DNA from: Bacteroidaceae bacterium
GTDB lineage: Bacteria > Bacteroidota > Bacteroidia > Bacteroidales > Bacteroidaceae
Length of the DNA stretch: 64,000 bases
Assembly (NCBI GenBank): GCA_017464345.1
Contig: JAFUAH010000004.1
Location: 1,269 to 65,268, forward strand
Reading direction: 5' to 3'
Shown here: positions 804 to 29,306 of the stretch, one piece after another
How positions within the stretch are numbered: position 1 is the stretch's first letter
How the letters are laid out: each line of letters opens with the position of its first letter
The notes under the pieces: model-generated
Told to the model about the DNA's origin: nothing
The model's database searches: none
What the model saw: the letters and a program-made list of their open reading frames with translations, nothing else
Made by a program: the position numbers and the translations under genes

Positions 804-2963
804 TTAAGAAACATCTGTATCATCTGTATGTGTATCGGTTTTGTTCTCTGTTTCGGCAGTGGATTCATGTGCCATGTAGTGGCGAATCTGGTGCATCTCA
901 TCGCCTGTGCGGCGCACAACGATGTAGCCGCGCGTGTTGCAGTAGGTGCGACGTTCGTAGCCCTGCTCTACGAAGGCACGTCCCAGGGCCACGGTGGAGA
1001 GTTTCTGTGTGATGCCCATGCCCACGATTTGCAGGGCCAGTGCCACGGACATAAACTCGCCGCCCTCACGCTCACTGGGTCGGCGGAAGTACATCTGCAC
1101 CAGTTCGTGTTCCAGCCGTGGCGTCTCGAACTGGCGGTTGTGGGCCGAGAGGCGCAGGATTTCCTCGCGGGAGAACCAGTAGCGGAAGCCCTGGCGATAG
1201 AGGGCGTAGGCCTGACGGTAGATGGCCTCGTAGTCGAAGGGCGTTTCGCGGGGCGAACGGATGTGCTCCACCTCGAACGGCAGCCAGCGGCGGTTGCCCG
1301 TGGGGTCGGAGAGGAACTGGACGTTGTTGCCCGTGCCGCAGAACGAGGCGATGTGCTTGCGGTGCTCGTGGAAGTGGGCGTAGGCGGCGCGCTCGTCGAT
1401 GGAGGGCATCGTCACGGCGGCCTTCAGTTGGTTGAGGTCGCGGGGCGACATGGTGTCCAGTTCCTCGCAGCATACGAGGCCGTACTGCGCCAGGGTCAGC
1501 AGGTCGTCGCGCCCCATGCGGTTGGCGTTGGTCTTGGTGTAGAAATATCTTGACAGTTCGGGCGGCAGGAGGTAGTTGAACCACGTGGTCTTGTACGACC
1601 CCTGTTCGCCGATGAGCACCAGTATGACGTTGTTTACCACCGCATCGTCCACCCACGCGGCCACCATGCCCACGAGCCACTTCCGCAGGTACAGGCAGAA
1701 CAGCCGTTGCTCCGCCTCGCCGCCCTTCACCGTTACCGTCTCGGCCAGGGTGCGGATGGGGTCAGGACCAGACCCACCCCCCGCCCTCCCTGTGAGGGAG
1801 GGAGTGGGGAGGGTCTCCAGATATTCCCTGAACGGATGGAATTCGGGCACGAAGTCGCTCTCTATCACGCGGTAGATGTCCTGTGCCCTGACGGCCTTGC
1901 GCTTCGACAGTTCCGCCCACAGCGAATTGACCACGCGGTCGGTGATAGGTTGCCAGTCTGGCCCGTACTCCACCCGCCCCGTTATCACATTGTGCCGTAA
2001 TCGGATATGTTCCTTTAGGAACGCCTGTATCTCCTCCACCGTGGCCAGGCCGCCGTTGTCCCCACCGTGTCCGTGAGGGTGCTTCTGTCCGCCCCGTGTA
2101 CCATGTTCCTCCGTCTTCTCGTAGCACGATGCCACCACTTCGGCCGCCTTGTCGTAGTCGGGAAATTCCTTGACAGCCCACTCCATGGCCGCCTCCCTTG
2201 TACACCCGAACTGGTTCAACCGGTAGCCCACGCGCATCACGTAGTCGTTGTGCGAGCCGGGCGCATACACCGCCCCCTCGCTCTCCACCTCCGGCCTGAT
2301 GGTCTTCGCGTAGAGCGCGCGGATGCGGGCCAGTTCGCGGTTGCGCTTGCGGCTCTCCTTCATCGGCTGCTGCATCCGTTCCCATTCGCCCTCTATCCAT
2401 TCTCGGCTGAACGCCTCGGCCTCGGGGTTGTAATAGACCTCGCTGTCGTGCGCCACCACGGACAGGCGCGTCACGTTCTTGCAATGGCCGTCCGCCTCGG
2501 CCCCCAGGAGCCGCTCGTAGTAGGCATTGCCCGCCGCGAACGCCTTCCGGTAGAACTGCACCTGCTGCCGGAGTTCGAACCCCTCATCCAGTTCGTAGCG
2601 GTACAGCACCCGCAGCCCCTCCCCGCTGATGGTCGTATAGCACAACAGCGTATGCGGGTCGGCCATAATTAAGGATTTCAATCCTTCCATTTTTCCATTT
2701 TTCAATGTTTCAATTTTATCAATATCGACCATCGCCATGCCCGTCAGCCTCACGACATGCTTCTGTGCCTTGCCGCCCTCGAAGATGCACGGCACGGCGA
2801 AGAGCATACTCTCGTTCTTCAGCGAGTCCTGCCTGTCCTGCCGATACCCTTCGGTCAGTTCCCGCGTCCGCCGGTCAGAGCGAATCGCCTCCACCATCGC
2901 CTCCAGCGTACTGCTCCGAGGCACCGTGTCCCAGAAGTTCCGAAATACTGATACTTCCACCAT
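804..2963 (-). CDS. VirE-family / BT4734-like primase-helicase (P-loop NTPase) of a mobile element
   Basis: The long ORF extends to 3014; I prefer the start at MVEVSVFRN. The N-terminus is a BT4734/PriCT-like region. The central Walker A is LIGEQGSYKTTW, followed by a VirE-like core (RRWLPFEV). Confidence 0.8.
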   Translation of the reverse strand: MVEVSVFRNFWDTVPRSSTLEAMVEAIRSDRRTRELTEGYRQDRQDSLKNESMLFAVPCIFEGGKAQKHVVRLTGMAMVDIDKIETLKNGKMEGLKSLIMADPHTLLCYTTISGEGLRVLYRYELDEGFELRQQVQFYRKAFAAGNAYYERLLGAEADGHCKNVTRLSVVAHDSEVYYNPEAEAFSREWIEGEWERMQQPMKESRKRNRELARIRALYAKTIRPEVESEGAVYAPGSHNDYVMRVGYRLNQFGCTREAAMEWAVKEFPDYDKAAEVVASCYEKTEEHGTRGGQKHPHGHGGDNGGLATVEEIQAFLKEHIRLRHNVITGRVEYGPDWQPITDRVVNSLWAELSKRKAVRAQDIYRVIESDFVPEFHPFREYLETLPTPSLTGRAGGGSGPDPIRTLAETVTVKGGEAEQRLFCLYLRKWLVGMVAAWVDDAVVNNVILVLIGEQGSYKTTWFNYLLPPELSRYFYTKTNANRMGRDDLLTLAQYGLVCCEELDTMSPRDLNQLKAAVTMPSIDERAAYAHFHEHRKHIASFCGTGNNVQFLSDPTGNRRWLPFEVEHIRSPRETPFDYEAIYRQAYALYRQGFRYWFSREEILRLSAHNRQFETPRLEHELVQMYFRRPSEREGGEFMSVALALQIVGMGITQKLSTVALGRAFVEQGYERRTYCNTRGYIVVRRTGDEMHQIRHYMAHESTAETENKTDTHTDDTDVS

Positions 2964-3269
2964 AATCTTTTCATCCTTTAAGTAACTAATCAAAAACGAC
3001 TTTATTTTTAACACAGAGAATATCTTTTTTAGTGGAATTATACAAGAGGCATCGAAGATGCTGCACAGAGAGGCTACGCCCTTCTTGGACGAGCGGTGTC
3101 TCGCCGTAGGCCTCTGTGTAAGACCTTTGGTCTCTCTTGCGTCCTCTCATAAAATGATAATCTCTGTGTTGAATGCTTAGGCAAAGTTACGGCAATTCGC
3201 AGAGAGCAACAAGCATCTGCACGGCGATGTTCGTTCGCCGTGCGATTATTCAACCCATAGGTTACAAAC

Positions 3270-3431
3270 TCAGTCCCGGAAAAGGTCGCGGACGCGCACA
3301 TCGAGCGCATCCGCTATCTGGTGCAACCGTTCCAGCGAAGGGTCGCACCGCCCACTTATGAACTTGCTCATGGCCTGGGGCGAGATGCCAATCCGCCGGG
3401 CCAAGGCCGTTGCACTTACGTTTTTTCCCAC
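3270..3431 (-). CDS. XRE-family HTH protein; helix 1 is in another frame (apparent A6 homopolymer frameshift)
   Basis: Hand translation gives (V)GKNVSATALARRIGISPQAMSKFISGRCDPSLERLHQIADALDVRVRDLFRD*. An ATG at 3484 opens MKAKTRQYDSQLQLLRVMWEKT*, which would fuse in frame if the A6 run (3421-3426 on plus) were A7. Confidence 0.5.
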   Translation of the reverse strand: MGKNVSATALARRIGISPQAMSKFISGRCDPSLERLHQIADALDVRVRDLFRD

Positions 3432-3518
3432 ATCACACGCAGCAGTTGCAACTGCGAGTCGTACTGTCTTGTTTTTGCTTTCATTGCTTTTGTTACGATT
3501 AAAAAATTAGACAAAATA
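3341..3518. repeat. Left copy of 178-bp direct repeat (5' part and -7 region of the XRE gene)
   Basis: Hand alignment with 10293-10470 gives 170/178 identical positions with no indels. Confidence 0.9.
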
Positions 3519-3763
3519 AGTTGGGGAGTGCAAAGGTACTCTATTTCCTTATGCACCCAAAACTATTAACGATATTTGTGCTACGGATTCACGACTATTA
3601 CAAATTGAATATGCATTGTGGCAGAAGAAACGAGTAGGGGAGAATGGTTCGATTCTTAAATTGCATATCCTGCATCCCAGGTTGCACGGTACAAATACAT
3701 TGACCATAGGGATGAGCAAGGACGATAGGCTTTGGCCAAATCTTAATATATATGCACTTTCTG

Positions 3764-3794
3764 TTTGCAAATATGAGAATTATTTGTAATTTTG
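3764..3794 (+). promoter_or_regulatory. Bacteroidetes-type promoter (TTTG-N19-TAatTTTG) for the cassette's plus-strand operon
   Basis: TTTG lies at 3764-3767 and TAATTTTG at 3787-3794, with the ATG at 3812. This matches the published Bacteroides -33/-7 consensus TTTG / TAnnTTTG. Confidence 0.6.
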
Positions 3795-3811
3795 CAGAAA
3801 TATTTTCAATT

Positions 3812-4054
3812 ATGGAGAAACAAGCAGATAATAGCATTGCTAAGCGTTTCCTCAAAATGGAGATGCTTCGCCGTGGTATCAGTACAGAAGATTTACAAAT
3901 GTTGTTATCCAAACGGGGGCACACCTATACTCTGTCAAGCATCAACAGCAAAATAAGCCGTGGCACATTCAGTGCCTCCTTCATGATAGAGTGTCTTGAG
4001 GCAATGAAATGCGACAAAATAGAACTCAATAATATCGTTGTAGACAATGAGTAG
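3812..4054 (+). CDS. DUF6471-like small HTH protein (putative regulator of the cassette)
   Basis: MEKQADNSIAKRFLKMEMLRRGIS...INSKISRGTFSASFMIECLEAMKC matches the DUF6471 pattern (..NKISRGKFSA.F..QCL.A.). The ORF track starts at 3752; the ATG at 3812 fits the promoter. Confidence 0.6.
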   Translation: MEKQADNSIAKRFLKMEMLRRGISTEDLQMLLSKRGHTYTLSSINSKISRGTFSASFMIECLEAMKCDKIELNNIVVDNE

Positions 4055-6587
4055 TTGTATCAACAAATTAGTTCAATATGTCAATACCTCGCTTAGATAT
4101 CATGACAAAGCGGGAATGGATGAGATATGTGCATCCATTGCCATCATGTATACCATCAAAAGACTTTCAGAATCAGGTCTAAATGGAAATCCATTCCAAG
4201 ATGAATATACGGTATTGAAACTCCACTTTAATGATTTGGTTGAAAGTTACGACCACTATACAAGCCAACTACCTTCTGAGCAACTGCAACAAATTAGCAG
4301 CCTTCTTGATGACATACTCAAAGCCAATGCCAAAGATGACAATATGGTCTCATGGATATATCAGGAACTGAAATCGACTTTAGCCAAGGATGCCTTGAAG
4401 AAAATTGGAAGCGGTAAGAACAAACTGACAGGTAACGAGATTCTCGTCCAAACCCAGTTCTTTACTGACAGTTATATGGTTAGGTACCTTGTTGACGAAA
4501 CTTTCGACCTATGTGAAAAAAATCTTCCGCAGGTCGTGTTTATCGACCCGGCCTGTGGCGGTGGCAATTTCCTGACGTACATCTACACCAAATTGTTCAA
4601 CTGGTACTCCGCCCACACTGATAATGACGCAGAGGTTATTAACTCACTAATTCTCAAAAACAATATCATCGGTTACGACCTTGACAAAAAGCTGTCAAGA
4701 ATAGCAGCATTATCATTATATACGTGTAGCAGACTTCACTCCAGCATCCCAAATACAACAGAAGTATTTGTTTACGGAGGTCTCAATGATGACCCTAAAG
4801 GCTTCCTTGCGAATCATGTCAAATCCAACGCCATTGGGGGAATAGACCTATCGCAGAGGCTGGCATCCATACGTGAGCAGGAAGCCCCCATCGTTTATGT
4901 CACCAACCCACCATTTATGGGAAAAAGAGACATGGATACCAGTTTGAAAGAATACCTGCAAAGCTATTATTCCAGGTCAAAAGGTGACTTGTGCTTTACC
5001 TTCATGGAGCAGATTATGCGCAGTATGCGAGAGCAAGACATTTTTGCCGCAGTTACTCAAAACGGTTGGATGTCTTTGTCATCCATGAAGGATTTCCGTA
5101 GAATGTTACTTGATAAATATTATCTCCGTACATGTATTGATATGGGGCCTAATGCCTTTGAGAATATCAATGGCGAGAAAACCAACATCGTTCTGTCTGT
5201 TATCACAGGTAAGAAGCCAAAGGATGGGCTACATAGTTCCTTTGTCAATCTGAGAGGGCATAATATGGTCGATAAACGAACGGCCTTGTCTAAACGCAAC
5301 TATGAAGTATATTCCGTATGCCAGGATAATTTCTGGCACAATTCCAATCTTGAATTTTGCTATCAATTAGGCAATGACTTCGAACTATTCAAGTCAATGC
5401 ACCGATATAGCGTATTGGGGAAGTGCATGCAGGGTTCTTCGACTGGTGACAACAAATTGATGGTGAAATATATATGGGAAACCGACGAGGAGGGATGGGT
5501 GCTTGCCAGCAAGGGCGGAGGTTACAGCAAGTGGGGAGGCCTTAACTTCTACAAAGTAAAGTGGGGCAAGCGGGGAGAACTACTTAAAGGCAACAAAGGA
5601 AGTGCCCTGAGGAATTCTAGCGAGATAGACAATACGGCCATTGTATATAGCGACACAGGCACATTAGGATTAAGTACCAGAGAACGGCTTGACGGTCAAG
5701 TATTCATTGCTTCTGGGCCTGGCATCAAGGTGTTGAAAGGAGATCCTCTTTGTCATCTTGCTTTCCTGAACTCAAAGTTGGCCACCTATTTCCTAAAGGT
5801 CTTGAATCCTAAGTTTACGGTGAGTGCTGGCTACATTGGAAAGATACCCGTAGCCGACGGAATCCTAGACAGCCCTTTCATATCATCACTGGCAGCCAAG
5901 TGTATCAGGCTCAAGCAGGAATATTTAAGCAGAAAACTTCCAAACTTCGAATTCGTACATGTGGACTATAAGGCCATATTAGACGTGGACTGCTATGTGG
6001 AGGCATGTATTAAAGAGGATGTATTTAACCAATATCGCCGCTATGTGTATGAGCAAGCCATTGATATGTTTATTTTGGATAAATACCAACTCTCTGATAC
6101 ACAGGAAAAAGAGTATGAAAAGATGACTGGCAGCAATATGACCTACACTGGAGACCTGCTGAACATGCGAAAAATTGACAAAATGCTTGCATCCACGATG
6201 AATGGCTGCTGCCAGTCTGTAAGTCGGAAGTTGAACGGATACATCATAGGAACAGAAAATTGCATCGACATGATTTCTTATATGTATTCACTGCGCCCCA
6301 AGGACATTGCCAGATACCTCATAGAGAACGTATCGTCTTTGTCTATTACCAAACGACTGTATAAAAGAGACTTGATACACAAATTGATATTGCAGACTTC
6401 AGGAATATATTCTTTGTCACACGTCCAGCCAGTATTATCCTTGACGGTGGATGACATCCATGCACAACTCATGGAAAACTATCCTGAATTGTATCGGCTA
6501 CTGCAAATCACACCAGAGACGATAAGGGAGATTATTAGTGTAGTTCATCAGAAATGCTTCTTCAATCATCCCATTCTTAAATTATGA
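4047..6587 (+). CDS. N6-adenine DNA methyltransferase, PglX/BREX-like gamma-class architecture
   Basis: Motifs are QTQFFTDSYMVRYLV, motif I FIDPACGGGNFL and motif IV VTNPPFMGK, followed by a long C-terminal region (presumed target recognition). The ORF overlaps both neighbours (8 nt and ATGA). Confidence 0.75.
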   Translation: MSSCINKLVQYVNTSLRYHDKAGMDEICASIAIMYTIKRLSESGLNGNPFQDEYTVLKLHFNDLVESYDHYTSQLPSEQLQQISSLLDDILKANAKDDNMVSWIYQELKSTLAKDALKKIGSGKNKLTGNEILVQTQFFTDSYMVRYLVDETFDLCEKNLPQVVFIDPACGGGNFLTYIYTKLFNWYSAHTDNDAEVINSLILKNNIIGYDLDKKLSRIAALSLYTCSRLHSSIPNTTEVFVYGGLNDDPKGFLANHVKSNAIGGIDLSQRLASIREQEAPIVYVTNPPFMGKRDMDTSLKEYLQSYYSRSKGDLCFTFMEQIMRSMREQDIFAAVTQNGWMSLSSMKDFRRMLLDKYYLRTCIDMGPNAFENINGEKTNIVLSVITGKKPKDGLHSSFVNLRGHNMVDKRTALSKRNYEVYSVCQDNFWHNSNLEFCYQLGNDFELFKSMHRYSVLGKCMQGSSTGDNKLMVKYIWETDEEGWVLASKGGGYSKWGGLNFYKVKWGKRGELLKGNKGSALRNSSEIDNTAIVYSDTGTLGLSTRERLDGQVFIASGPGIKVLKGDPLCHLAFLNSKLATYFLKVLNPKFTVSAGYIGKIPVADGILDSPFISSLAAKCIRLKQEYLSRKLPNFEFVHVDYKAILDVDCYVEACIKEDVFNQYRRYVYEQAIDMFILDKYQLSDTQEKEYEKMTGSNMTYTGDLLNMRKIDKMLASTMNGCCQSVSRKLNGYIIGTENCIDMISYMYSLRPKDIARYLIENVSSLSITKRLYKRDLIHKLILQTSGIYSLSHVQPVLSLTVDDIHAQLMENYPELYRLLQITPETIREIISVVHQKCFFNHPILKL

Positions 6588-8929
6588 ATTACCTCCAATT
6601 ATATAGGGATACCTTGTCAGCCGTTTTGGCAACTCGACAAAAGGATGGTGCAATCATTGACCCTGCCCAGACACACAGACTGATGGTCACCGCCCGTGCT
6701 TATTTTGTAGTTTATTGTTATGTGGTGTCCCATGCTTATAAATGGGGCAGTGCTATGAGCACGCTTGAAGATTGCATCAACTGGATAAAGAAGAATCTTT
6801 CACCAGAAAATCCATTCCTGCTTGTATACGAACAAACAGATGGACAAATCAACTCATGCATAGAATATTATTTGCGACAGATAGACTCTGAAAGCCTTTC
6901 CTGTAATGTGGGTATCATCTATGAAACGCTGCTGCAAATTGATGTCAGTGGAAGTTCTGTAATTGACGGAGATACTTCAAGGAACAGTCAAGGTAGTTAC
7001 TATACTCCAAGTAAACTTGCATCATACGTAACAGAATCTGTCATCGCCAACTATGTAGAAAATAATGGTTTTGAGGCATTGGGCAAGGCTCGCATTCTTG
7101 ATTTTTCATGCGGATCAGGTGTTTTCCTGACAGAAGCACTTCGCAGCATAGGTAAAACCATGAGGATGTCGAAGGCTGGACTATCGGAGTTTGTAGAGAA
7201 TCTATATGCCTGTGATGTGGATTTCATTGCTTTAGAGATATGCAAGTTCAACATCATGGACTTTATCGAAGACATAGGCATATACGCTAAGTTATCCAAA
7301 AATTTCAAGCATGCAAATTTCCTTTTGGACACGATGAATGAGAAGGATAACATTGAAAAGATAAACTCCTATCTTGATGGCTTTCTGTATCACAAGGACC
7401 TTGCCATAGGCATTGACTTCTTGTCAGAATATGACATTATTCTTGGCAACCCGCCATGGGAGAAAATAAGGTTTGAGGAAAAGAGTTTCTATGCACAATA
7501 CGAATCATCCATCGGCAAGTTGAACTTCAAACCCAATTTGCAGACAGGCATAGAGAGTGCAGAGGTTTCGAATCTGCTACTAAAGAACTATTGTCAACAA
7601 TACAGGCAACAAATAATAGACACCAAGGCATTTATCAAAGTCTCGCCACGTTTCGCAGCCTCTTGCGCTGGAGAACTCAATACGAGCAACCTGTTTACAG
7701 AGGCTGCATACAACCTCATGTCAGGAAAAGCATGTGTAGGGATTATCATCAAGAGTTCCACTATTGCCACTAAGGCCAGTAAGCCCTTGTTCGTGAAAAT
7801 CTGTGATAGGATTGATACTGTCTTTGACTTTATCAACCGAAAAAGATACTTCAATATTGACAATAGGGAGAGGTTTACGCTATTGATGATGGATAACAAG
7901 CCACACCAAGGCTTTAGACTGGCTATGAACGTTCATGATGTTGACAGTATAGAGGAGAACATTGTTAAAATTACGAAAGAGGAACTGCACCTCCTTAATC
8001 CCGAGACAGAAATGATTCCCAATCTCTCTTCCTCGAAGGATTTGCCTATCATGCTGTCCATCTATAAGACTTTTAATACTATTGCTGACGAATTCCCGAA
8101 GTTAAAGTACGGCAGACTAGTTCATTTTACGAATCACGCTACAGACATAGAGCGAGAACAAGGGCCGAACAACATCCCTGTCTATGAAGGGAAATTCTTT
8201 TCTGCTTTTGATGGGATGTACGCAGGTTTTAACCATATTCCTGAAACCGACAGATACAAAGCAAAAGCCCATGCGCGAAAGTTGTCTGATAAAGAAAAGC
8301 GGAATCATTGTTATCCCGAGTCGAGATTCTTTATCAAGAAGAGGAAATGGAAAGCATTGTCAGCAACCTATAAAGACGATTATATGTTGGCCTGGCATAG
8401 CCTGACATCGGCCACCAACGAACGCGCTTGCATAGCAACGATACTGCCTTTCATGCCAGCCTCACAGTCTGTTCAGTTTCTGACAACTGGCTCCACTGAT
8501 GCGCTGGTCTATTTGTGTTGCCTATTCAACTCGGTAGTGTTTGACTATATTGTGAAGAACAAATTGACAGGCATCGACCTGACCCAAAGTTTCATCAAGC
8601 AGATCGCAATCCCCAGCATTGACGAGGTGAAAACATACGTTGTTAATTACTGCGGGAAAGCCACCAATGTCTTTTCGCTCCTTCACGATATTTGCAGGAC
8701 GATACTTAAAGACGACGAGCGTTTGACAGCCCTATGGCCACAAAACAAGGACTTGGGTCACATTTTACCGTCAGGCAGAAGGGATTTACTTGTCCTAATG
8801 GATGCGCTGATTTCCCTTGTATATCAGATTCCCGAGGATGATTTGAAATACATCTTCACATCATATTCAAACTATTCAGCAAGTGAGACTGAAAGTATAA
8901 TTGCACAAATTACTCGTCTAAAGGCTTAA
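6584..8929 (+). CDS. N6-adenine DNA methyltransferase, Eco57I / Alw26I-Eco31I-Esp3I-like
   Basis: Motifs are GSYYTPSKLA, motif I ILDFSCGSGVFL and motif IV LGNPPWEKIRF. The C-terminal half is unassigned. Confidence 0.75.
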   Translation: MNYLQLYRDTLSAVLATRQKDGAIIDPAQTHRLMVTARAYFVVYCYVVSHAYKWGSAMSTLEDCINWIKKNLSPENPFLLVYEQTDGQINSCIEYYLRQIDSESLSCNVGIIYETLLQIDVSGSSVIDGDTSRNSQGSYYTPSKLASYVTESVIANYVENNGFEALGKARILDFSCGSGVFLTEALRSIGKTMRMSKAGLSEFVENLYACDVDFIALEICKFNIMDFIEDIGIYAKLSKNFKHANFLLDTMNEKDNIEKINSYLDGFLYHKDLAIGIDFLSEYDIILGNPPWEKIRFEEKSFYAQYESSIGKLNFKPNLQTGIESAEVSNLLLKNYCQQYRQQIIDTKAFIKVSPRFAASCAGELNTSNLFTEAAYNLMSGKACVGIIIKSSTIATKASKPLFVKICDRIDTVFDFINRKRYFNIDNRERFTLLMMDNKPHQGFRLAMNVHDVDSIEENIVKITKEELHLLNPETEMIPNLSSSKDLPIMLSIYKTFNTIADEFPKLKYGRLVHFTNHATDIEREQGPNNIPVYEGKFFSAFDGMYAGFNHIPETDRYKAKAHARKLSDKEKRNHCYPESRFFIKKRKWKALSATYKDDYMLAWHSLTSATNERACIATILPFMPASQSVQFLTTGSTDALVYLCCLFNSVVFDYIVKNKLTGIDLTQSFIKQIAIPSIDEVKTYVVNYCGKATNVFSLLHDICRTILKDDERLTALWPQNKDLGHILPSGRRDLLVLMDALISLVYQIPEDDLKYIFTSYSNYSASETESIIAQITRLKA

Positions 8930-10157
8930 TGAAACCGTATGCACGGCCCGTTCCGTTTCCACCTCTTGCCCAGTCAGAGGACTGTGATACCAACGTGTCA
9001 TATTCGGATTCTTCAAGAATGTACAACTTGTATTTATCGGCTCGACCAATCCTCTCGAATACGAGAATCTTATGCATGAATCCACCGGGCAGCCCCAATC
9101 TAGGCTTGGAAATATCTGTCAGTTTCTCTTTTCCTATAGTTTCCCCCTTTAGTTGTATTCGCCAATTACTATTGTCAGTAGCATATAGAATCGTATTATT
9201 CTTGTAGGCCTTCCCATTATAGACTAAAGTGATGTCCTTGGTCTGGGCATGATTATCCTTGTCGATACCAAAGAACTCCACAGAGCCAGGTTTCTTCACA
9301 CCATTAAGTTTTCCTTTTGCCGAAAGGTCAAGTATGTTTCTTGAGCCTCCTGTCATCCTTTTTGTCTCTATCCACATACTTTCTCCCGCCAACTCTATGG
9401 ATGCCGTATGATATTTGATGTCGCTATTGGTTGGCTCCAACACTTCTGCCCTTACTCTCTTATTGGTACTTTTCCTAAGTCCTCTTCTTTTAATTTCTCC
9501 AAATGTATCTTTCAGTTTCTTAATATCAGAAAGAGACGTGGTAGTCAGTTTTCTTAATTGTTCATTAGTGAATACTCTTGTTGTTTTCTCTGGAAGTACA
9601 ATTTTTGCATTGACAAGCGTGAGCAGAACTTTCTCTGTCAGTTCTTTGCATGAAGTAGCCTCTCCATTAAGGAAACTATTGTAATAGTCGAAGATATCCG
9701 ATAATAGTTCCCGCCCATTTGTATCGTCTTTTTCATAAATATTTTCCACACAGATGGAGGCTTCCACATTTTGGAACAGACCTGATGTCGTGAGATTGGA
9801 AGAGCCAACAATAATGAAGTATTGTGCATTTCCCTCAAACGTGTATATTTTAGGATGATAAACAACCTTGTTGGGGGAATATACGATATAGGTAGGGATG
9901 CGTTCTGCCATCAGCAATTCAAGCGCCTCCTTGGATGTGGCATGCAAATTGACACCTATATATAATCGAACCTTACCGCCACGCTGAATGAACTTCTTCA
10001 AATTAGGAAGAATCTGCTTGACACCACCAGCACTGACAAAAGCCACAAATGCAGAAAAGTCCAGGTAGTCTGCACGCTCAAGAATCTCATTGATAACATC
10101 CCCAGCAGGTTTATCACCTGGTAAAGACAAACCTTGTCCAATGAATTTAACATCCAT
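8910..10157 (-). CDS. PLD-superfamily (single HKD) nuclease with unassigned C-terminal domain; candidate restriction endonuclease (BfiI/NgoFVII-like)
   Basis: The N-terminal domain has VVYHPKIYTF...IIVGSSNLTTSGL (HxK...GSxN). About 190 C-terminal residues carry no motif I recognise. The 3' end overlaps the convergent methylase gene by 20 nt. Confidence 0.7.
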   Translation of the reverse strand: MDVKFIGQGLSLPGDKPAGDVINEILERADYLDFSAFVAFVSAGGVKQILPNLKKFIQRGGKVRLYIGVNLHATSKEALELLMAERIPTYIVYSPNKVVYHPKIYTFEGNAQYFIIVGSSNLTTSGLFQNVEASICVENIYEKDDTNGRELLSDIFDYYNSFLNGEATSCKELTEKVLLTLVNAKIVLPEKTTRVFTNEQLRKLTTTSLSDIKKLKDTFGEIKRRGLRKSTNKRVRAEVLEPTNSDIKYHTASIELAGESMWIETKRMTGGSRNILDLSAKGKLNGVKKPGSVEFFGIDKDNHAQTKDITLVYNGKAYKNNTILYATDNSNWRIQLKGETIGKEKLTDISKPRLGLPGGFMHKILVFERIGRADKYKLYILEESEYDTLVSQSSDWARGGNGTGRAYGFIKPLDE

Positions 10158-10263
10158 ACTCTATCACTTTCTCCAATAATATAAACATATTGATTCTTAT
10201 GTGCAAAAATACAAAAAAAATTGGATAGTAAAGAATGTGCTATGCAGAAATGCAAAATACTAT

Positions 10264-10383
10264 CTAAAAATGTGCAATCAGAGGCGCGTCATGGTCGCAC
10301 CGCCCACTTATGAACTTGCTCATGGCCTGGGGCGAGACACCAATCCGCCGGGCCAAAGCCGTTGCACTTACGTTTTTTCCCAC
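10264..10383 (-). pseudogene. Truncated copy of the XRE HTH gene (inside the right direct repeat)
   Basis: Hand translation gives (V)GKNVSATALARRIGVSPQAMSKFISGRCD, then divergent HDAPLIAHF*. It has the same A6 tract and the same upstream short frame as the left copy. Confidence 0.6.
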
Positions 10384-10470
10384 ATCACGCTCAGCAGTTG
10401 TAACTGCGATTCGTACTGTCTTGTTTTTGCTTTCATTACTTTTGTTACGATTAAAAAATTAGACAAAATA
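10293..10470. repeat. Right copy of 178-bp direct repeat
   Basis: See 3341-3518. Confidence 0.9.
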
Positions 10471-10516
10471 GGTATGGAAATGCCTGTGCAAGCACAGACA
10501 TTATGATTGAAATAAT

Positions 10517-10555
10517 TTGGGAGTGCAAAGATTTTGAAAATCTCGGCACTCCCAA
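10517..10555. terminator. Nested hairpin (TTGGGAGTGC...GCACTCCCAA with inner GATTTT-G-AAAATC)
   Basis: Perfect 10-bp outer arms read directly from the sequence. It lies at the right boundary of the mobile region. Confidence 0.4.
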
Positions 10556-10626
10556 GCGATTCCTAATAGTTTTATTCCTCACAGAAGTCTTCCTTGCCAA
10601 CACCGTAAGGGGGAATGTGTTAATAA

Positions 10627-10770
10627 TTATGCTATTGCCTTGGCAAATTCCCATCCGTAATCCCTGTAGTCATCAAGTGTAGTAGTATCAGGCACCCAGA
10701 GTTTGCCAATGCCGTCGTTCACCAGTTCAAAGCCAGCCTCGGCGAGTTTGAGGCTAATCTGCTTTGCCAT
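10627..10770 (-). CDS. Possible 47-aa small protein coupled to the cupin gene
   Basis: Hand translation gives MAKQISLKLAEAGFELVNDGIGKLWVPDTTTLDDYRDYGWEFAKAIA*. Its ATG overlaps the cupin stop (TAATG). It is below the ORF-track length cutoff. Confidence 0.3.
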   Translation of the reverse strand: MAKQISLKLAEAGFELVNDGIGKLWVPDTTTLDDYRDYGWEFAKAIA

Positions 10771-11126
10771 TATGCTTTCTCGAATTTAACTTTCTGGCTG
10801 ATGTCGTCTTTTATCATCGTGATAATCATCTTGAACGGCTCCACGGCATTGACGGCATGAGGCGCATTGGCGGGGATGATGAATGTCTGGCCTGCTTCCA
10901 GAGTGTGGGCCGTGCCGCTGACGGAAATCTCCATCAGTCCGTCGATGATTTGCAGCACAGCATCAAACGGAGCCGAGTGCTCAGATAGTTGCTGACCCTT
11001 GTCGAAGGAGAACAGCGTGACGCTGCCACCCTCGGTGTGAATGAACTCTTTTGAAACGATGCCACCCTCGGCATAGTCAATTGCTTCGTTGGCTATGAAA
11101 GCCTTTCCTTTTTCTATTGTTGCCAT
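10770..11126 (-). CDS. Cupin-domain protein
   Basis: 118 aa. The pattern G..L.EHSAPFDAVLQIIDG...G....L.AGQ..IIPAN.PHA is typical of cupin_2. Confidence 0.7.
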   Translation of the reverse strand: MATIEKGKAFIANEAIDYAEGGIVSKEFIHTEGGSVTLFSFDKGQQLSEHSAPFDAVLQIIDGLMEISVSGTAHTLEAGQTFIIPANAPHAVNAVEPFKMIITMIKDDISQKVKFEKA

Positions 11127-11283
11127 AGTCTTCAGTATTTATACCTTGTCATCAACAAACCCGCAAAGACCGTGCCAGACGAAAAGTTGGAAACATTTGT
11201 GTCCACTCTGAAGAATCATGTAGGCTGAGCAGGCGATAATTTGGCAGAATTTTGTATCTTTGCGGCAAAATTCAACTGACAAG

Positions 11284-11970
11284 ATGGAAACAAAAGTGAC
11301 CAAGGCATTGTTGCTATGCCCTCTTTTCGAGGGGTTGACGGCAGACGAGATAGAACAGGCGATGTCAGCCGTCAACTATCGACTGGTACATTTCGACAAG
11401 AACGATGTCTATGTGCTGGCAGGCTTTCCTTGTCGCTATGCGGATATTATCGTGGAGGGCGAGTTGACTGCCCGTATGGTAGGCCCTTCCGGTAAGTTTG
11501 TACAGATGGCGACTCGCACCATGGGCAACCTATTGGCACCCGCTTTTATCTTCTCGAAAGACAATAGGATGCCCGTGAGCATTGAGACCAATTCGTCCAC
11601 CATCGTTCTGCGCATGTCTCCCGATGAATTACTGCAACTGATGAAGTCAGACGACCGCATCCATCTGAATTTCATTCGCCAGCTGTCGGCTGTAGGCCAG
11701 TTCCTTGCCAGGAAAGTGCGGATGCTTACCCTCCACACCGTTCGGGAAAAGGTGGCCATCTTCCTGCTTGAAGAAGCCAAGAAGTGCGGTTCCGATAGTT
11801 TCACCCTGAAGAAATCCCGTCAGGAGATTGCTGACAGTTTTGCCATTCAGAAGTTCTCCCTGCAGCGTTGCCTTAATGAGTTGGTAGCAGAGGGAACCAT
11901 CTTGTTAGATGGCAAGCATATAATCATTATAGACAAACAGAAATTAATGTCATTTGGGGCGGTTCCCTAA
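11284..11970 (+). CDS. Crp/Fnr-family transcriptional regulator
   Basis: A cNMP-binding-like N-terminus plus a C-terminal HTH (SRQEIADSFAIQKFSLQRCLNELVAEG). TATCTTTG at 11255-11262 supports the ATG at 11284. Confidence 0.75.
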   Translation: METKVTKALLLCPLFEGLTADEIEQAMSAVNYRLVHFDKNDVYVLAGFPCRYADIIVEGELTARMVGPSGKFVQMATRTMGNLLAPAFIFSKDNRMPVSIETNSSTIVLRMSPDELLQLMKSDDRIHLNFIRQLSAVGQFLARKVRMLTLHTVREKVAIFLLEEAKKCGSDSFTLKKSRQEIADSFAIQKFSLQRCLNELVAEGTILLDGKHIIIIDKQKLMSFGAVP

Positions 11971-12165: not shown

Positions 12166-12819
12166 ATGGCAATGGAAGATAAGGAAAAAGAGTTGACTCC
12201 GCAGGAGTCGATAGAGGTTATGCAGCGCATGGTGCGCCAGGCAGAAGCGACGGCACACTTCACGGGACAGCCGTTCCTGACGGCCGGTGTTTGCTTCGTC
12301 GTCACGTTTCTCACGATGGCTGTGCTTTATGCGGTGTGGCCCGAACGAAACTGGACGTGGGTTTTGTTTCTGTACGTCGTCCTGCACTTCGTCTTTTGGC
12401 ATCGTTCCCTGCCCAAAAAGGGCTCCCCACAGACGCTGGCCGAGCGGGTGATTGGCGAAGTGTGGAGTACAGGCGAGGGCATGATATTTGGCACCATCCT
12501 GTTTGGCTGCCTTGGTATCAATGAGCATAACTGGCTTGTGCCGCCCATCCTCCTGCTGTTTGTGACCACCATTGTCTGCAATTCCAGTTACACCAACGAT
12601 GACGAGTGGGGCTATCGCCTATCTACCATCGGCATAATTGGTGCCTTGGGTATCATCTTCAACGGAACGCGCTGGACGGTAATGACTTGGGGTGCTTGCC
12701 TCTACTATGCCGTGCTGTTTGCCGTCGTCCTCTTGGGCACGGGCTGGCGCTGGACGTATCTGGCCAAGCATCCCGAGAAACGGAAAACTATGGTGATAGA
12801 CGTGGACGACGATGAGTGA
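12166..12819 (+). CDS. Multi-pass membrane protein of unknown function
   Basis: Several hydrophobic helices. The ORF overlaps the downstream regulator gene by 8 nt. Confidence 0.6.
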   Translation: MAMEDKEKELTPQESIEVMQRMVRQAEATAHFTGQPFLTAGVCFVVTFLTMAVLYAVWPERNWTWVLFLYVVLHFVFWHRSLPKKGSPQTLAERVIGEVWSTGEGMIFGTILFGCLGINEHNWLVPPILLLFVTTIVCNSSYTNDDEWGYRLSTIGIIGALGIIFNGTRWTVMTWGACLYYAVLFAVVLLGTGWRWTYLAKHPEKRKTMVIDVDDDE

Positions 12820-13234
12820 CCAGCCAAGAACATTCCAACCGCTCGACCCGTTGCTGCACGCCGAACTCCGGCTGGCCGTCGTGTCGCTGCTCATCAGCGT
12901 GGGAGAGGCCGAATTCCCCTATATAAAGGAGAAGACGGGAGCCACGGCGGGCAACCTCAGCGTGCAGATAGACAAACTCTCGGCGGCAGGTTACATCGAG
13001 GTCGAAAAGACCTTCAAGGGCAAGAAGCCCTGCACCCGTTGCCGCATTACGCCCACAGGGCTGAAAGCCTTTGAGGCATACGTCGATGCACTGAAAACTT
13101 ACCTTGAAGTAAACGAGGTCGAAAAGACCTTCAAGGGCAAGAAGCCCTGCACCCGTTGCCGCATTACGCCCACAGGGCTGAAAGCCTTTGAGGCATACGT
13201 CGATGCACTGAAAACTTACCTTGAAGTAAAGTAA
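12812..13234 (+). CDS. Winged-helix regulator (HTH_34-like) with duplicated C-terminal 39 residues
   Basis: LDPLLHAELRLAVVSLL....EFPYIKEKTGATAGNLSVQIDKLSAAGYIEVEKTFKGKKPCT matches the HTH_34 pattern. The C-terminal wing and helix occur twice. Confidence 0.75.
   Translation: MSDQPRTFQPLDPLLHAELRLAVVSLLISVGEAEFPYIKEKTGATAGNLSVQIDKLSAAGYIEVEKTFKGKKPCTRCRITPTGLKAFEAYVDALKTYLEVNEVEKTFKGKKPCTRCRITPTGLKAFEAYVDALKTYLEVK
12997..13230. repeat. Perfect 117-bp tandem duplication (2 units) inside the regulator CDS
   Basis: Units 12997-13113 and 13114-13230 are identical by direct comparison. Confidence 0.9.
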
Positions 13235-27028: not shown

Positions 27029-27958
27029 TTATCCTGTCCAGAACTTCCACCAGGGTGCAGGTTCGGGTAGCAGAGCGTTTTTTATTGCCTCTTTGAAGTC
27101 TCTGGCCGTCTGGTATCGGCGTATCTGTTCTTTTTCCGTAGCCCTGCGGATGACAGAGAGTAGGCGACTGGGGATGCGGTCGGGACAGGGGGGAAGGGGT
27201 TCTTTCATCTGCCGGGTCAGTGTCTCCGCCTCTGTCTTGCAGGCCATGGGATTCTTGCCTGCCAGAAGTTCGTAGAATGTGATGCCCAGTTCGTAGATGT
27301 CGGTGGTTGCATTTATCTGTACGGAAGCTCCGTTCTGTTCACGCAGTATCTGCTCTGGGGCGGAATATTCCGGCGTACCGATAAATCCGAAGGAGGAAAA
27401 CTTGTTACCACCGTTCATGCGTGCTATGCCCAGATCCATGAGGCGCACATTACTGTCCTGTTCGACCATGATGTTTGAGGGTTTTATGTCACGGTGGATG
27501 ACCCCCCGGGAATGTACATAGTCCAGTGCGTCAAGCACGGACACAATGGCATGGCAGATTTTCTCAATACGTGTCGGCGAACTATCGAATTTTCGCACAT
27601 ACTTGTCGATGTCCTCTCCCTGTACGAAGTTGCTTAGTATGAATATGGGGCCATATTCGGGAGCATACTCACAATAGCCTATCATCTCCACCAGGTTAGG
27701 GTGGCGGAAAGCCAGGGATGCCTCTTGCTGGGCACGTTCTCGTATCATCTTGTTGTTGGCATAGAAATCCTTGACACGCTTGACCGCTATCCTGCTGCCC
27801 GTACGACACCGGTAGCCGATATAGACATCGCCCATGGCACCGCTACCGACAGGTTTGTCCATCGGATTATAGCAGTACCATTCGCCCATAACCTGCAGAT
27901 AGAGGTAGGGGTCGCCACGTCGCTGACGTACGGTCTGGGATTGGTATGCAGGACTCAT
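27029..27958 (-). CDS. Hanks-type Ser/Thr kinase, soluble
   Basis: Motifs are VGSGAMGDVYIG, IAVKRV, HRDIKPSNIMV, DLGIARM and GTPEYSAPE. Confidence 0.85.
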   Translation of the reverse strand: MSPAYQSQTVRQRRGDPYLYLQVMGEWYCYNPMDKPVGSGAMGDVYIGYRCRTGSRIAVKRVKDFYANNKMIRERAQQEASLAFRHPNLVEMIGYCEYAPEYGPIFILSNFVQGEDIDKYVRKFDSSPTRIEKICHAIVSVLDALDYVHSRGVIHRDIKPSNIMVEQDSNVRLMDLGIARMNGGNKFSSFGFIGTPEYSAPEQILREQNGASVQINATTDIYELGITFYELLAGKNPMACKTEAETLTRQMKEPLPPCPDRIPSRLLSVIRRATEKEQIRRYQTARDFKEAIKNALLPEPAPWWKFWTG

Positions 27959-27974: not shown

Positions 27975-28751
27975 CTACATACCTACGGTGCCCCCGTGCT
28001 GATTTCCAGAAGAACCATCAAACCCTACAGTACCTCCTTCGGGTTGGAAGTTTCCACCCCATGGGCCTGATGCCGCAGGATCGAAGGGCTGGAAACCACT
28101 GCGTGTACGGTTGTCGCCAAAGGGGTTGAAGTCGTCCACTGGCTCTTCTTCTTCCTGCTGCTGCAAAGGAACGAAGTTTTCAGCCACTTTCAGCCCCATG
28201 GTGACAGGGTCAAGCAGGATCAGGTAGAGTTCGTAGTTGTCGCCCACGGTGATGATGTCACCGTTCTTGCATTGTACTGCTTCCAAGAAGAGACTCTCAC
28301 CGTTGAGCAGCGTACCGTTGGTAGACTGCCCGTCGGCAATGGATGCCAAAACGCGCTCGGGATTCTTCATTTTGCGCACCACAAGCACGGCATGTTCGCC
28401 CGATACGGTTCCCTCTGGAAGCACTATGTCACACTGCGTGGATTTTCCGATGACGTTCTTACCCACATGCAGTGGCCAGAACTCTCCGGCCATGGTGCGA
28501 GACACACTATACAGGAATCCCACCACGGGTTTGCCAGAGAGCACGGTATTGTTAGCAGGCTGGTGAGGATTGCTTCTGTCTGGCTGAACGTTTACGGATG
28601 GCCGCTGTCCACCCATCATGCCAGGCACCACGGTCCCACGGCCTCCACCCTGTGCCTGGGCATCTGTGCTGCGCGTATAGAAACTCGGAGAACCACCAGG
28701 GCGGGCGCCATCCATCGGTTCAAGACCCTGAATCACTGTTTTGTTTGCCAT
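27975..28751 (-). CDS. FHA-domain protein with Gly/Pro-rich disordered flanks
   Basis: The central FHA is VGKNVIGKSTQCDIVL...SGEHAVL...STNGTLLNG. It is the first gene of the operon. Confidence 0.8.
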   Translation of the reverse strand: MANKTVIQGLEPMDGARPGGSPSFYTRSTDAQAQGGGRGTVVPGMMGGQRPSVNVQPDRSNPHQPANNTVLSGKPVVGFLYSVSRTMAGEFWPLHVGKNVIGKSTQCDIVLPEGTVSGEHAVLVVRKMKNPERVLASIADGQSTNGTLLNGESLFLEAVQCKNGDIITVGDNYELYLILLDPVTMGLKVAENFVPLQQQEEEEPVDDFNPFGDNRTRSGFQPFDPAASGPWGGNFQPEGGTVGFDGSSGNQHGGTVGM

Positions 28752-29306
28752 ATTGTTTTGTATTATGTGTTGAATGACTATTCATTAAGTTTCCATCTTC
28801 AGCGCATATACAAAAAAGCGTGGGAACCACTGCTTGTTGCCCGTCCCACTCTTAGAGGCTTCTCGCATTGCCCGATATTGTGAACGAGCAACGCCGAAGC
28901 CCACGCCGATATGCAATCCTCACTACCATGTCTGTGTGGTATGGCAGGAGTGTATCTGCACATCCCGAGGACATCTACCGTTGCTTCATCCTTGACAATA
29001 TCTGAGAATTTTGCGAGAATTCCTAAGAGCCAAAGACAAAGCGTCATGAGTAAACGCCTTTCATATATGTCATGTTCCTCTGCCCCATCCTTGTGTGATA
29101 TGCCCGCCACTCTTGGCTCGGCGTGAGCTTGCACCTGCAGGGACGCAGGATACACCTGAGGAACAGCGCAAAGTTACGAATAATATCTCTATATAAAAAA
29201 GAAAAAACAAAAAAACTTTTGTATATTGTATAAGTGAGTATAAAGGAAAAAACGTTGGCAGAATTAATAAATGGATAAAAAAGACTACGGTGCCTGACCA
29301 AAATCC

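Follow-up and report, generated by a model that had tools for sequence, protein, structure and literature searches.

A mobile cassette in a Bacteroidaceae genome probably encodes a BfiI-like Type IIS restriction-modification system with two adenine methylases

What does a nuclease of the phospholipase D (PLD) family do next to two large adenine methylase genes? The question is raised by a cassette of four intact, tightly packed open reading frames (ORFs) at positions 3812-10157 of the window, that is, of the whole 64,000-nucleotide (nt) stretch analysed here, which comes from contig JAFUAH010000004.1 of a Bacteroidaceae bacterium (assembly GCA_017464345.1). The ORFs encode a DUF6471 protein, the two methylases M1 and M2, and a convergently transcribed nuclease, R. 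An earlier examination of the letters (the original prediction) had described an unusual gene set, most simply read as a Type IIS system in the style of BfiI. We found its four ORFs where it had placed them, and we could confirm its 20-nt convergent overlap and its motifs. Its view that the combination is unusual was not borne out as rarity, however, since the genes form a conserved mobile cassette present in about ten phyla. Dozens of genomes contain these genes together, which are therefore not a chance juxtaposition. We conclude, with good though not full confidence, that the cassette encodes a BfiI-like Type II restriction-modification system (Type IIS, with a PLD nuclease). Its parts are as follows.

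DUF6471 gene: 3812..4054 (alternative start 3752), plus strand; 80 amino acids (aa) from the ATG at 3812; Pfam PF20075, 2.8e-19
M1: 4047..6587, plus strand; 846 aa; predicted gamma-class N6-adenine DNA methyltransferase, PglX/MmeI-like
M2: 6584..8929, plus strand; 781 aa; predicted gamma-class N6-adenine DNA methyltransferase, distantly of the Alw26I/Eco31I/Esp3I N6-methyladenine (m6A) kind
R: 8910..10157, minus strand; 415 aa; single-HKD nuclease of the PLD family
Domains of R: residues ~1-140, BfiI/NgoFVII-like catalytic domain; ~145-220, helical linker; ~257-415, family-specific C-terminal domain, presumed to serve DNA recognition
M2/R overlap (convergent 3' ends): 8910..8929, 20 nt

The DUF6471 gene overlaps M1 by 8 nt and M1 overlaps M2 by a 4-nt ATGA, while the tail-to-tail overlaps between R and a methylase gene in related cassettes measure 4 to 57 nt.

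The catalytic part of R is the best anchored element of the cassette. Each R chain holds one HKD motif (YHPK at residues 100-103, GSSNLT at 118-123), which implies that the protein has to dimerise. Pfam recognises PLDc_2 (4.7e-8) and, at the borderline, RE_NgoFVII (3.9e-5), and finds no match past about residue 170. When R was compared with the sequences of the PDB by phmmer, BfiI (2c1l) was the only relative (E 1e-5); a profile of the R family matched 2c1l at 4.4e-8, as well as SauUSI and R.NgoAVII, and hhalign aligned the N-terminal domain with an alignment of 11 NgoFVII-family proteins at 97.7% probability. The catalytic residues of BfiI (H105, K107, N125 and E136, as named in PMC4081073) align with H101, K103, N121 and E132 of R, which are invariant in 46 homologues. 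An AlphaFold (AF2) model of R built from an alignment reached a predicted local distance difference test score (pLDDT) of 83 and replaced an unusable single-sequence model (pLDDT 36). Foldseek searches with this model placed BfiI first (9.7e-13, 454 aligned columns) and NgoAVII-R (4rct) after it (2.1e-9, 426 columns), while PLD-only proteins aligned over about 160-275 columns; a comparison with viral structures returned PLD matches only. These alignments show that R carries a PLD domain of the BfiI/NgoFVII type with a complete catalytic tetrad. The earlier identification of a PLD-family nuclease from its HPK...GSSNLT signature thus holds, with BfiI as the best solved match by both sequence and fold.

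More weight falls on the second half of R, the part that would have to read DNA. BfiI and NgoAVII-R, at the top of the Foldseek list, are the only matches whose alignments exceed 400 columns and so extend through the C-terminal half of R; each consists of a PLD domain plus a B3-like domain according to the papers cited for them. From residue 260 onward, the model of R runs through a strand (WIET), a loop (MTGGSRN), a second strand (ILDL) and a helix, followed by three strands ending in NSNWRIQL, another helix and two final strands (KILVFER and KYKLYIL). The B3 fold has the order beta-beta-alpha-beta-beta-beta-alpha-beta-beta, and the strand-helix order of R from residue 260 agrees with this pattern. 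The C-terminal domain as modelled is likely, but unproven, to be B3-like.

Whatever its fold, this domain is conserved to a striking degree. Among close relatives it equals the PLD domain in conservation, and among distant ones it surpasses it, with 31-39% identity as against 25-30% in most of them; there is almost no variation in the R family at W262, in the MTGGSRNILDLS stretch or at N329-x-x-WR. A profile of the domain searched against 1.84 billion representative proteins collected 232 clusters (at 50% identity), nearly all of them PLD-plus-domain proteins of 400-440 aa, so far as sequence goes a domain both conserved in and confined to the R family, apart from a few fusions. In two of these, the R-type C-terminal domain follows an AAA_5 (McrB-like) domain (P0249, 540 aa) or stands at the C-terminus of a Metallophos protein (P0259, 1054 aa), and both proteins retain the MTGGS/ARN and NGTWRLQ motifs. 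Because it is re-used with different nuclease and NTPase modules, the domain behaves like a DNA-targeting module. There are also R variants of ~470-510 aa (P0194, P0203, P0208, P0217 and P0209) in which an XRE-type HTH_3 domain is fused to the N-terminus, and these look like a controller protein fused to a restriction enzyme.

The two methylases show the features of working enzymes. M1 has QFFT at residue 137, DPACGGGNF at 167 and NPPF at 287; M2 has GSYYTP at 137, DFSCGSGVF at 173 and NPPW at 289. In an alignment of 42 M1 sequences QFFT and NPPF are invariant and motif I (D-x-A-x-G-G-G-N-F) nearly so, and in 43 M2 sequences NPPW is invariant while the cores of GSYYTP and of motif I are nearly invariant. 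Pfam assigns M1 to Eco57I (6.2e-15), MmeI_Mtase (1.1e-9) and also N6_Mtase, and M2 to Eco57I (2.2e-7) and N6_Mtase (7.2e-6). The claim that both large proteins are m6A methyltransferases of active appearance therefore stands: their families are gamma-class N6-adenine families and their key motifs are conserved across 41-42 orthologues each. M1 was rightly called PglX-like, with PglX as its top PADLOC match (1e-65) and PglX/BrxX (8c45) as its nearest solved relative in the PDB (1.4e-30, residues 284-604), though it scores 253.6 bits against the NCBIfam model of BREX-1 PglX, whose cut-off is 500, and lacks the ends of PglX. The description of M2 as Eco57I/Esp3I-like is supported by its Pfam Eco57I match, with only a distant relation to the Alw26I/Eco31I/Esp3I m6A family (TIGR02987, 81 bits, cut-off 353.5); a search for a relative of M2 in the PDB found none. 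No nuclease domain and no MmeI_N domain was matched by Pfam in either protein, and the alignments of both to Type IIG and PglX profiles begin past the N-terminal parts of those profiles. A fused enzyme of Type IIG was considered and rejected, since neither M1 nor M2 has a Pfam nuclease domain. In gamma-class enzymes the target-recognition domains (TRDs) sit downstream of the catalytic motifs, and the most conserved stretches of M1 (residues 481-640) and M2 (residues 601-680) are both found in that downstream part. The conserved C-terminal domain of R and the conserved putative TRD regions of M1 and M2 point to one specificity shared by the whole family.

The strongest argument about the division of labour in the cassette comes from its relatives. 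R has 754 homologues at E 1e-3 or better, more than 120 of them at E 1e-117 or better, and the family extends over about ten phyla (Bacteroidota, Bacillota, Pseudomonadota, Actinomycetota, Spirochaetota, Campylobacterota, Planctomycetota, Acidobacteriota, Thermodesulfobacteriota, Peregrinibacteria and Cyanobacteriota). Carriers available in culture include Chryseobacterium gossypii 1RM2, Mucilaginibacter terrae CCM 8645, Persicobacter psychrovividus NBRC 101262 and Enterococcus gallinarum K205-4a. The partners of R in 83 related loci sort as follows.

Type A, convergent M2 and M1 beside R, as here: 46 of 83 loci
M1/M2 pair cut by a contig end: 5 of 83 loci
Type B, convergent D12-class methylase (278 aa) and EcoRI-type methylase (PF13651): 24 of 83 loci
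Neither methylase pair: 8 of 83 loci, 7 of which are cut by a contig end or have a truncated R match

A two-methylase pair thus adjoins R in 70 of the 83 loci, not counting the five contig-cut copies, and R is genetically coupled, by this recurrence, to two adenine methyltransferases of active appearance. In type B, of which Brenneria roseae LMG 27714 and Serratia sp. AKBS12 provide examples, the EcoRI-type methylase usually has a RelB domain fused to its N-terminus. The two architectures are not separate lineages of R: the nuclease of locus L020, which has type-B methylases, is 88% identical to that of the type-A locus L019 and is nested in a well-supported type-A clade of the maximum-likelihood tree of R, while Clostridial type-A nucleases group with the type-B clade. 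These placements imply at least two exchanges of the methylase pair. Since nearly identical R proteins are found beside unrelated pairs, R should find its target unaided, and the site protected should be one and the same for both pairs. Such a swap around a near-identical nuclease offers a clean test of how unrelated methylases converge on one target.

Some loci depart from this scheme. In a Pyrinomonadaceae metagenome-assembled genome (MAG), at 5196-8909 of L025, a nuclease 83% identical to type-A members has no methylase pair and comes directly after a 1237-aa DUF4391/Eco57I/TaqI_C protein, which may represent a third partner arrangement. The cassette on plasmid pPP10 of Persicobacter psychrovividus (L100, 6408-16030) is interrupted, ~3.4 kb with two hypothetical genes lying between the nuclease and methylase genes. 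The flanks of related cassettes vary and include integrases, a relaxase and other defence genes. An E. coli homologue (L055) gave no megablast match to complete E. coli genomes.

How might such a system work? By analogy, two R monomers would each contribute their one HKD motif to a shared active site that needs no metal. A short asymmetric DNA sequence would be read by the C-terminal domain, and R would cut beside it. M1 and M2 would each methylate one adenine, on opposite strands of the same site, and so protect the DNA of the host. We assign one strand to each methylase because characterised members of both families (MmeI and PglX for M1, the m6A domain of Alw26I/Esp3I for M2) modify a single strand of an asymmetric site. 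Where a DUF6471 protein is present, it would control the methylase operon from an operator overlapping the promoter, and the overlapping convergent 3' ends may couple the expression of R to that of the methylases. The proposal of a BfiI-style Type IIS system is in this way sustained by the PLD homology with its tetrad, by a fold alignment over the full length of R and by the two convergent adenine-methylase genes.

Two alternatives deserve to be weighed before it is adopted. According to the first, R has no specificity of its own but is recruited by M1, M2 or both into a split complex resembling Type IIG or Type III, in which the TRD of a methylase picks the site. M1 does belong to the MmeI/PglX lineage, whose members are normally fused to effectors or found beside them, and the conservation of R's C-terminal domain is higher than is usual in a specificity domain. 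However, the 88%-identical R proteins work beside two structurally unrelated pairs, and the Eco57I/TaqI_C protein of L025 would make a third context; a docking surface conserved for such different partners is unlikely. That R stays constant while the methylases are swapped argues against a specificity-less subunit, as does the grafting of its C-terminal domain onto other nuclease and NTPase modules. The conservation itself is explained by a single family-wide specificity, given that M1 and M2 are conserved in their putative TRD regions too. We regard recruitment of R as improbable.

The second alternative accepts a PLD restriction-modification system but not a Type IIS one: the site would be symmetric or degenerate, and the methylases redundant or differently targeted. 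Asymmetry is indeed deduced from the number and family of the methylases only, and the D12 and EcoRI-type enzymes of the alternative pair often act on palindromes. Two methylases are nevertheless kept in both architectures, at ~70 loci and with conserved motifs, as if both were needed; the characterised relatives of M1 and M2 are the single-strand enzymes mentioned above; and BfiI and CglI, the PLD enzymes with a distinct reading domain that have been characterised, cut beside an asymmetric site. A symmetric or degenerate target is to our mind about as unlikely as recruitment.

An epigenetic defence resembling BREX, DISARM or MADS, formed by a PglX-like methylase and a DrmC-like PLD protein, can be set aside as very improbable, for although PADLOC gives PglX and DrmC (R, 6.5e-8) as its best names and both methylases match MAD2 weakly, M1 remains far under the BREX-1 PglX cut-off and is without the PglX ends, the DrmC match is limited to the generic PLD core, the only PglZ-domain ORF of the genome is unlinked and on another contig, and no helicase, ATPase, PglZ or BrxC gene is conserved in the contexts examined. 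The earlier suggestion of a new PglX-based system type finds no support either, M1 falling under that cut-off with no PglZ, BrxC or BrxL linked to it. Named systems were also tried individually. BREX was rejected on the M1 score and because PglZ, BrxC and BrxL are missing beside the cassette, here and in the relatives examined; DISARM, because no helicase (DrmA) or DUF1998 (DrmB) gene lies within the cassette or is conserved beside it; and an ATP-dependent enzyme of the NgoAVII/CglI type, because no helicase-like ATPase gene is conserved beside R in the loci examined and the flanks differ between loci.

Several points weigh against the BfiI-like interpretation itself. The recognition site, its asymmetry, the position of cleavage and the metal independence are all things that we infer, and we found no biochemical or methylome results for any family member. 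As the original prediction had noted, some 190 C-terminal residues of R lack an assigned fold: residues ~225-415 have no Pfam match and no match among PDB sequences. The comparison with B3 and EcoRII-N folds that it had proposed came out divided, Foldseek and the strand-helix order suggesting B3 while sequence profiles gave no support, since hhalign aligned the domain with EcoRII-N at 21.8% over 26 columns of the last hairpin only and found nothing in common with the C-terminal half of the NgoFVII family. Strong C-terminal conservation would also fit a role that is not sequence-specific. The L020 system has a Mutator-family transposase (10351-11544, in a Syntrophales MAG) between the R gene and the D12 and EcoRI-type methylase genes, and could be decaying. 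Finally, the genome studied here is a metagenome bin that is 61% complete.

A bolder version of the BfiI-like reading, which we put forward tentatively and consider doubtful, is that the R family forms a third subfamily of PLD restriction endonucleases, set apart by sequence from the BfiI and NgoAVII groups. Its reader would be an unnamed domain other than B3 that keeps to one specificity in about ten phyla; two unrelated pairs of adenine methylases would serve it interchangeably, and McrB-like and Metallophos enzymes would have re-used it. If so, the family would supply a new metal-independent Type IIS enzyme together with a new DNA-reading module, and a natural case of four methylase families converging on one asymmetric site. 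A survey of Type II enzymes from 2008 distinguished only two PLD subfamilies, those of BfiI and NgoAVII (PMC2441816), and a review from 2014 counted more than 40 putative PLD enzymes in REBASE (PMC4081073). We found no paper on the R family. PMC4392985 presents LlaKI as a partially purified, metal-independent 50-kDa dimeric isoschizomer of FokI. Its site, GGATG, contains an adenine in either strand, which makes it an attractive hint for the target of R, but no protein sequence is given in the abstract and outline of that paper, and we do not use LlaKI as evidence. In two RefSeq plasmid records R is named only 'phospholipase D family protein', and one of the methylases 'hypothetical' or 'N-6 DNA methylase', so that annotation and defence-system finders may miss the R family as a restriction system.

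The remaining gene of the cassette appears to be dispensable to it. A DUF6471 gene lies 5' of M1 in only 11 related loci, mostly from gut and rumen Bacteroidales plus Faecalimonas, and one type-B locus (L066) has a 33% tblastn match to DUF6471 near the EcoRI-type methylase gene; being limited to a subset of cassettes, DUF6471 is an accessory outside the core of the system. The protein has a sequence pattern like that of an XRE-type helix-turn-helix (HTH), and hhalign aligned it in register with HTH_3, at a probability of only 9%; we found no relative in the PDB and no paper on DUF6471. The protein is probably a small accessory HTH regulator. We prefer its start at 3812 to the one at 3752 because homologues begin there and because the promoter lies between 3752 and 3811.

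Promoter of the modification operon: 3764..3795, plus strand; Bacteroides-type; delineated with 7 DUF6471 upstream regions compared

The consensus of Bacteroides promoters is well established. Here the -33 element is TTTG (3764-3767), followed by a 20-nt spacer and the -7 element TAATTTTG (3788-3795). The upstream regions compared have in common, besides the promoter, an inverted repeat, TTCTCATATATG / CATATATGAGAA, which is perfect in L004 and partial in our sequence, where ATATGAGAA (3771-3779) falls within the promoter spacer. This promoter-overlapping repeat is a candidate operator, and autoregulation of the methylase operon by the DUF6471 protein is a reasonable inference that parallels the RelB-fused methylases and HTH-fused nucleases of other cassettes.

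The genomic setting shows where the cassette sits. Its host is a resident mobile element of the Bacteroidales, marked by a VirE-type primase at 804-3014, and two direct repeats flank the cassette.

Left copy of the 191-nt direct repeat: 3341..3531; comprises the promoter of a resident XRE-type gene (minus strand) and the 5' part of that gene
Right copy of the 191-nt direct repeat: 10293..10483; 93% identical and truncated; upstream of R on the minus strand

G+C content is 38-44% at ~3000-10500 as against 53-64% on both sides, a foreign composition from which it follows that the cassette was at some time brought in from elsewhere. It is a mobile, horizontally acquired unit, a ~40% G+C insert in a ~60% G+C mobile element. 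In a genome of the same genus (G422, locus L095) the cassette is absent, and the primase is followed without interruption by only one XRE copy and the right flank. This empty site fits insertion with a long target duplication, and fits deletion between the repeats equally well. An Rfam scan of 2800-11400, made for the flanking repeats, yielded nothing, and a tRNA scan found no tRNA as an integration site.

The XRE-type frame is broken in each repeat copy at six consecutive A residues (3421-3426 and 10373-10378, minus strand). With one more A, MKAKTRQYDSQLQLLRVMWEK would be joined to NVSATALARRIGISPQAMSKFISGRCD... in a canonical HTH protein; the break may reflect a genuine frameshift, phase variation or an error in sequencing the homopolymer. 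Further along the window, at 12812-13234, a 140-aa ORF for an HTH-like regulator ends with two identical copies of EVEKTFKGKKPCTRCRITPTGLKAFEAYVDALKTYLEV, a perfect tandem duplication within a small regulator gene. Elsewhere in the same genome, contig C5 has two more restriction-like ORFs, for an NgoFVII-type PLD protein (28339-28761, 346-aa frame, 3.2e-29) and a protein with an EcoRII-N domain (68398-68763, 423-aa frame, 2.2e-24), and contig C37 has, at 27374-27955 and unlinked to the cassette, the 530-aa ORF with a PglZ domain (2.8e-39), which, to judge by its size, may be a regulator with a PglZ domain rather than part of a BREX system.

What makes the family interesting is above all how widely it occurs, that its methylase pairs are interchangeable and that its reader domain has no name as yet. 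To our knowledge, few metal-independent PLD restriction enzymes have been characterised, namely BfiI, BmrI and, in part, the NgoFVII/NgoAVII/CglI group, and such enzymes are useful as cleavage modules. The cassettes also matter as barriers to the transformation of gut and rumen Bacteroidales.

Set beside known systems, the cassette shows both likenesses and differences. The DUF6471 protein recalls the C proteins of restriction-modification systems in being small, in its HTH-like pattern, in its place at the head of an operon and in a promoter with an inverted repeat, but it is of no recognised C-protein family, precedes the methylases and not the nuclease, and is missing from most cassettes. 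M1 shares with BREX PglX (BrxX) and the MmeI-family enzymes of Type IIG/IIL the gamma-class motif order and the region after the catalytic domain; unlike them, it is a stand-alone protein of 846 aa with neither an MmeI-type nuclease domain nor BREX partner genes. The NgoAVII, NgoFVII and CglI systems are protected by cytosine methylation. They have a PLD domain homologous to that of R, and Foldseek aligns the whole length of R.NgoAVII (4rct), but their R protein works with a helicase-like ATPase subunit, for which no gene is conserved beside R in the loci examined. The targets of these enzymes are GCSGC or GCCGC, according to the papers cited for them.

The closest likeness is to BfiI and BmrI (ACTGGG 5/4; 2c1l), which have the same plan as R: a single-HKD PLD domain comes first, with its catalytic tetrad in common, and is joined by a linker to a C-terminal domain of its own. 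In size R (415 aa) is similar to BfiI (358 aa), and in both systems two separate methyltransferase genes lie beside the nuclease gene. The two nucleases are only ~14% identical in the Foldseek alignment, their sequence similarity is confined to the PLD core, and by sequence the C-terminal domain of R is a distinct family. The target of R need not resemble the ACTGGG of BfiI. The methylases of BfiI are N4-cytosine enzymes, whereas those of the cassette are gamma-class N6-adenine enzymes, or of the D12 and EcoRI types in the alternative architecture. The cassette is thus an intact member of a widespread family of a known kind, and most probably works as a BfiI-like Type IIS system that employs adenine methylases.

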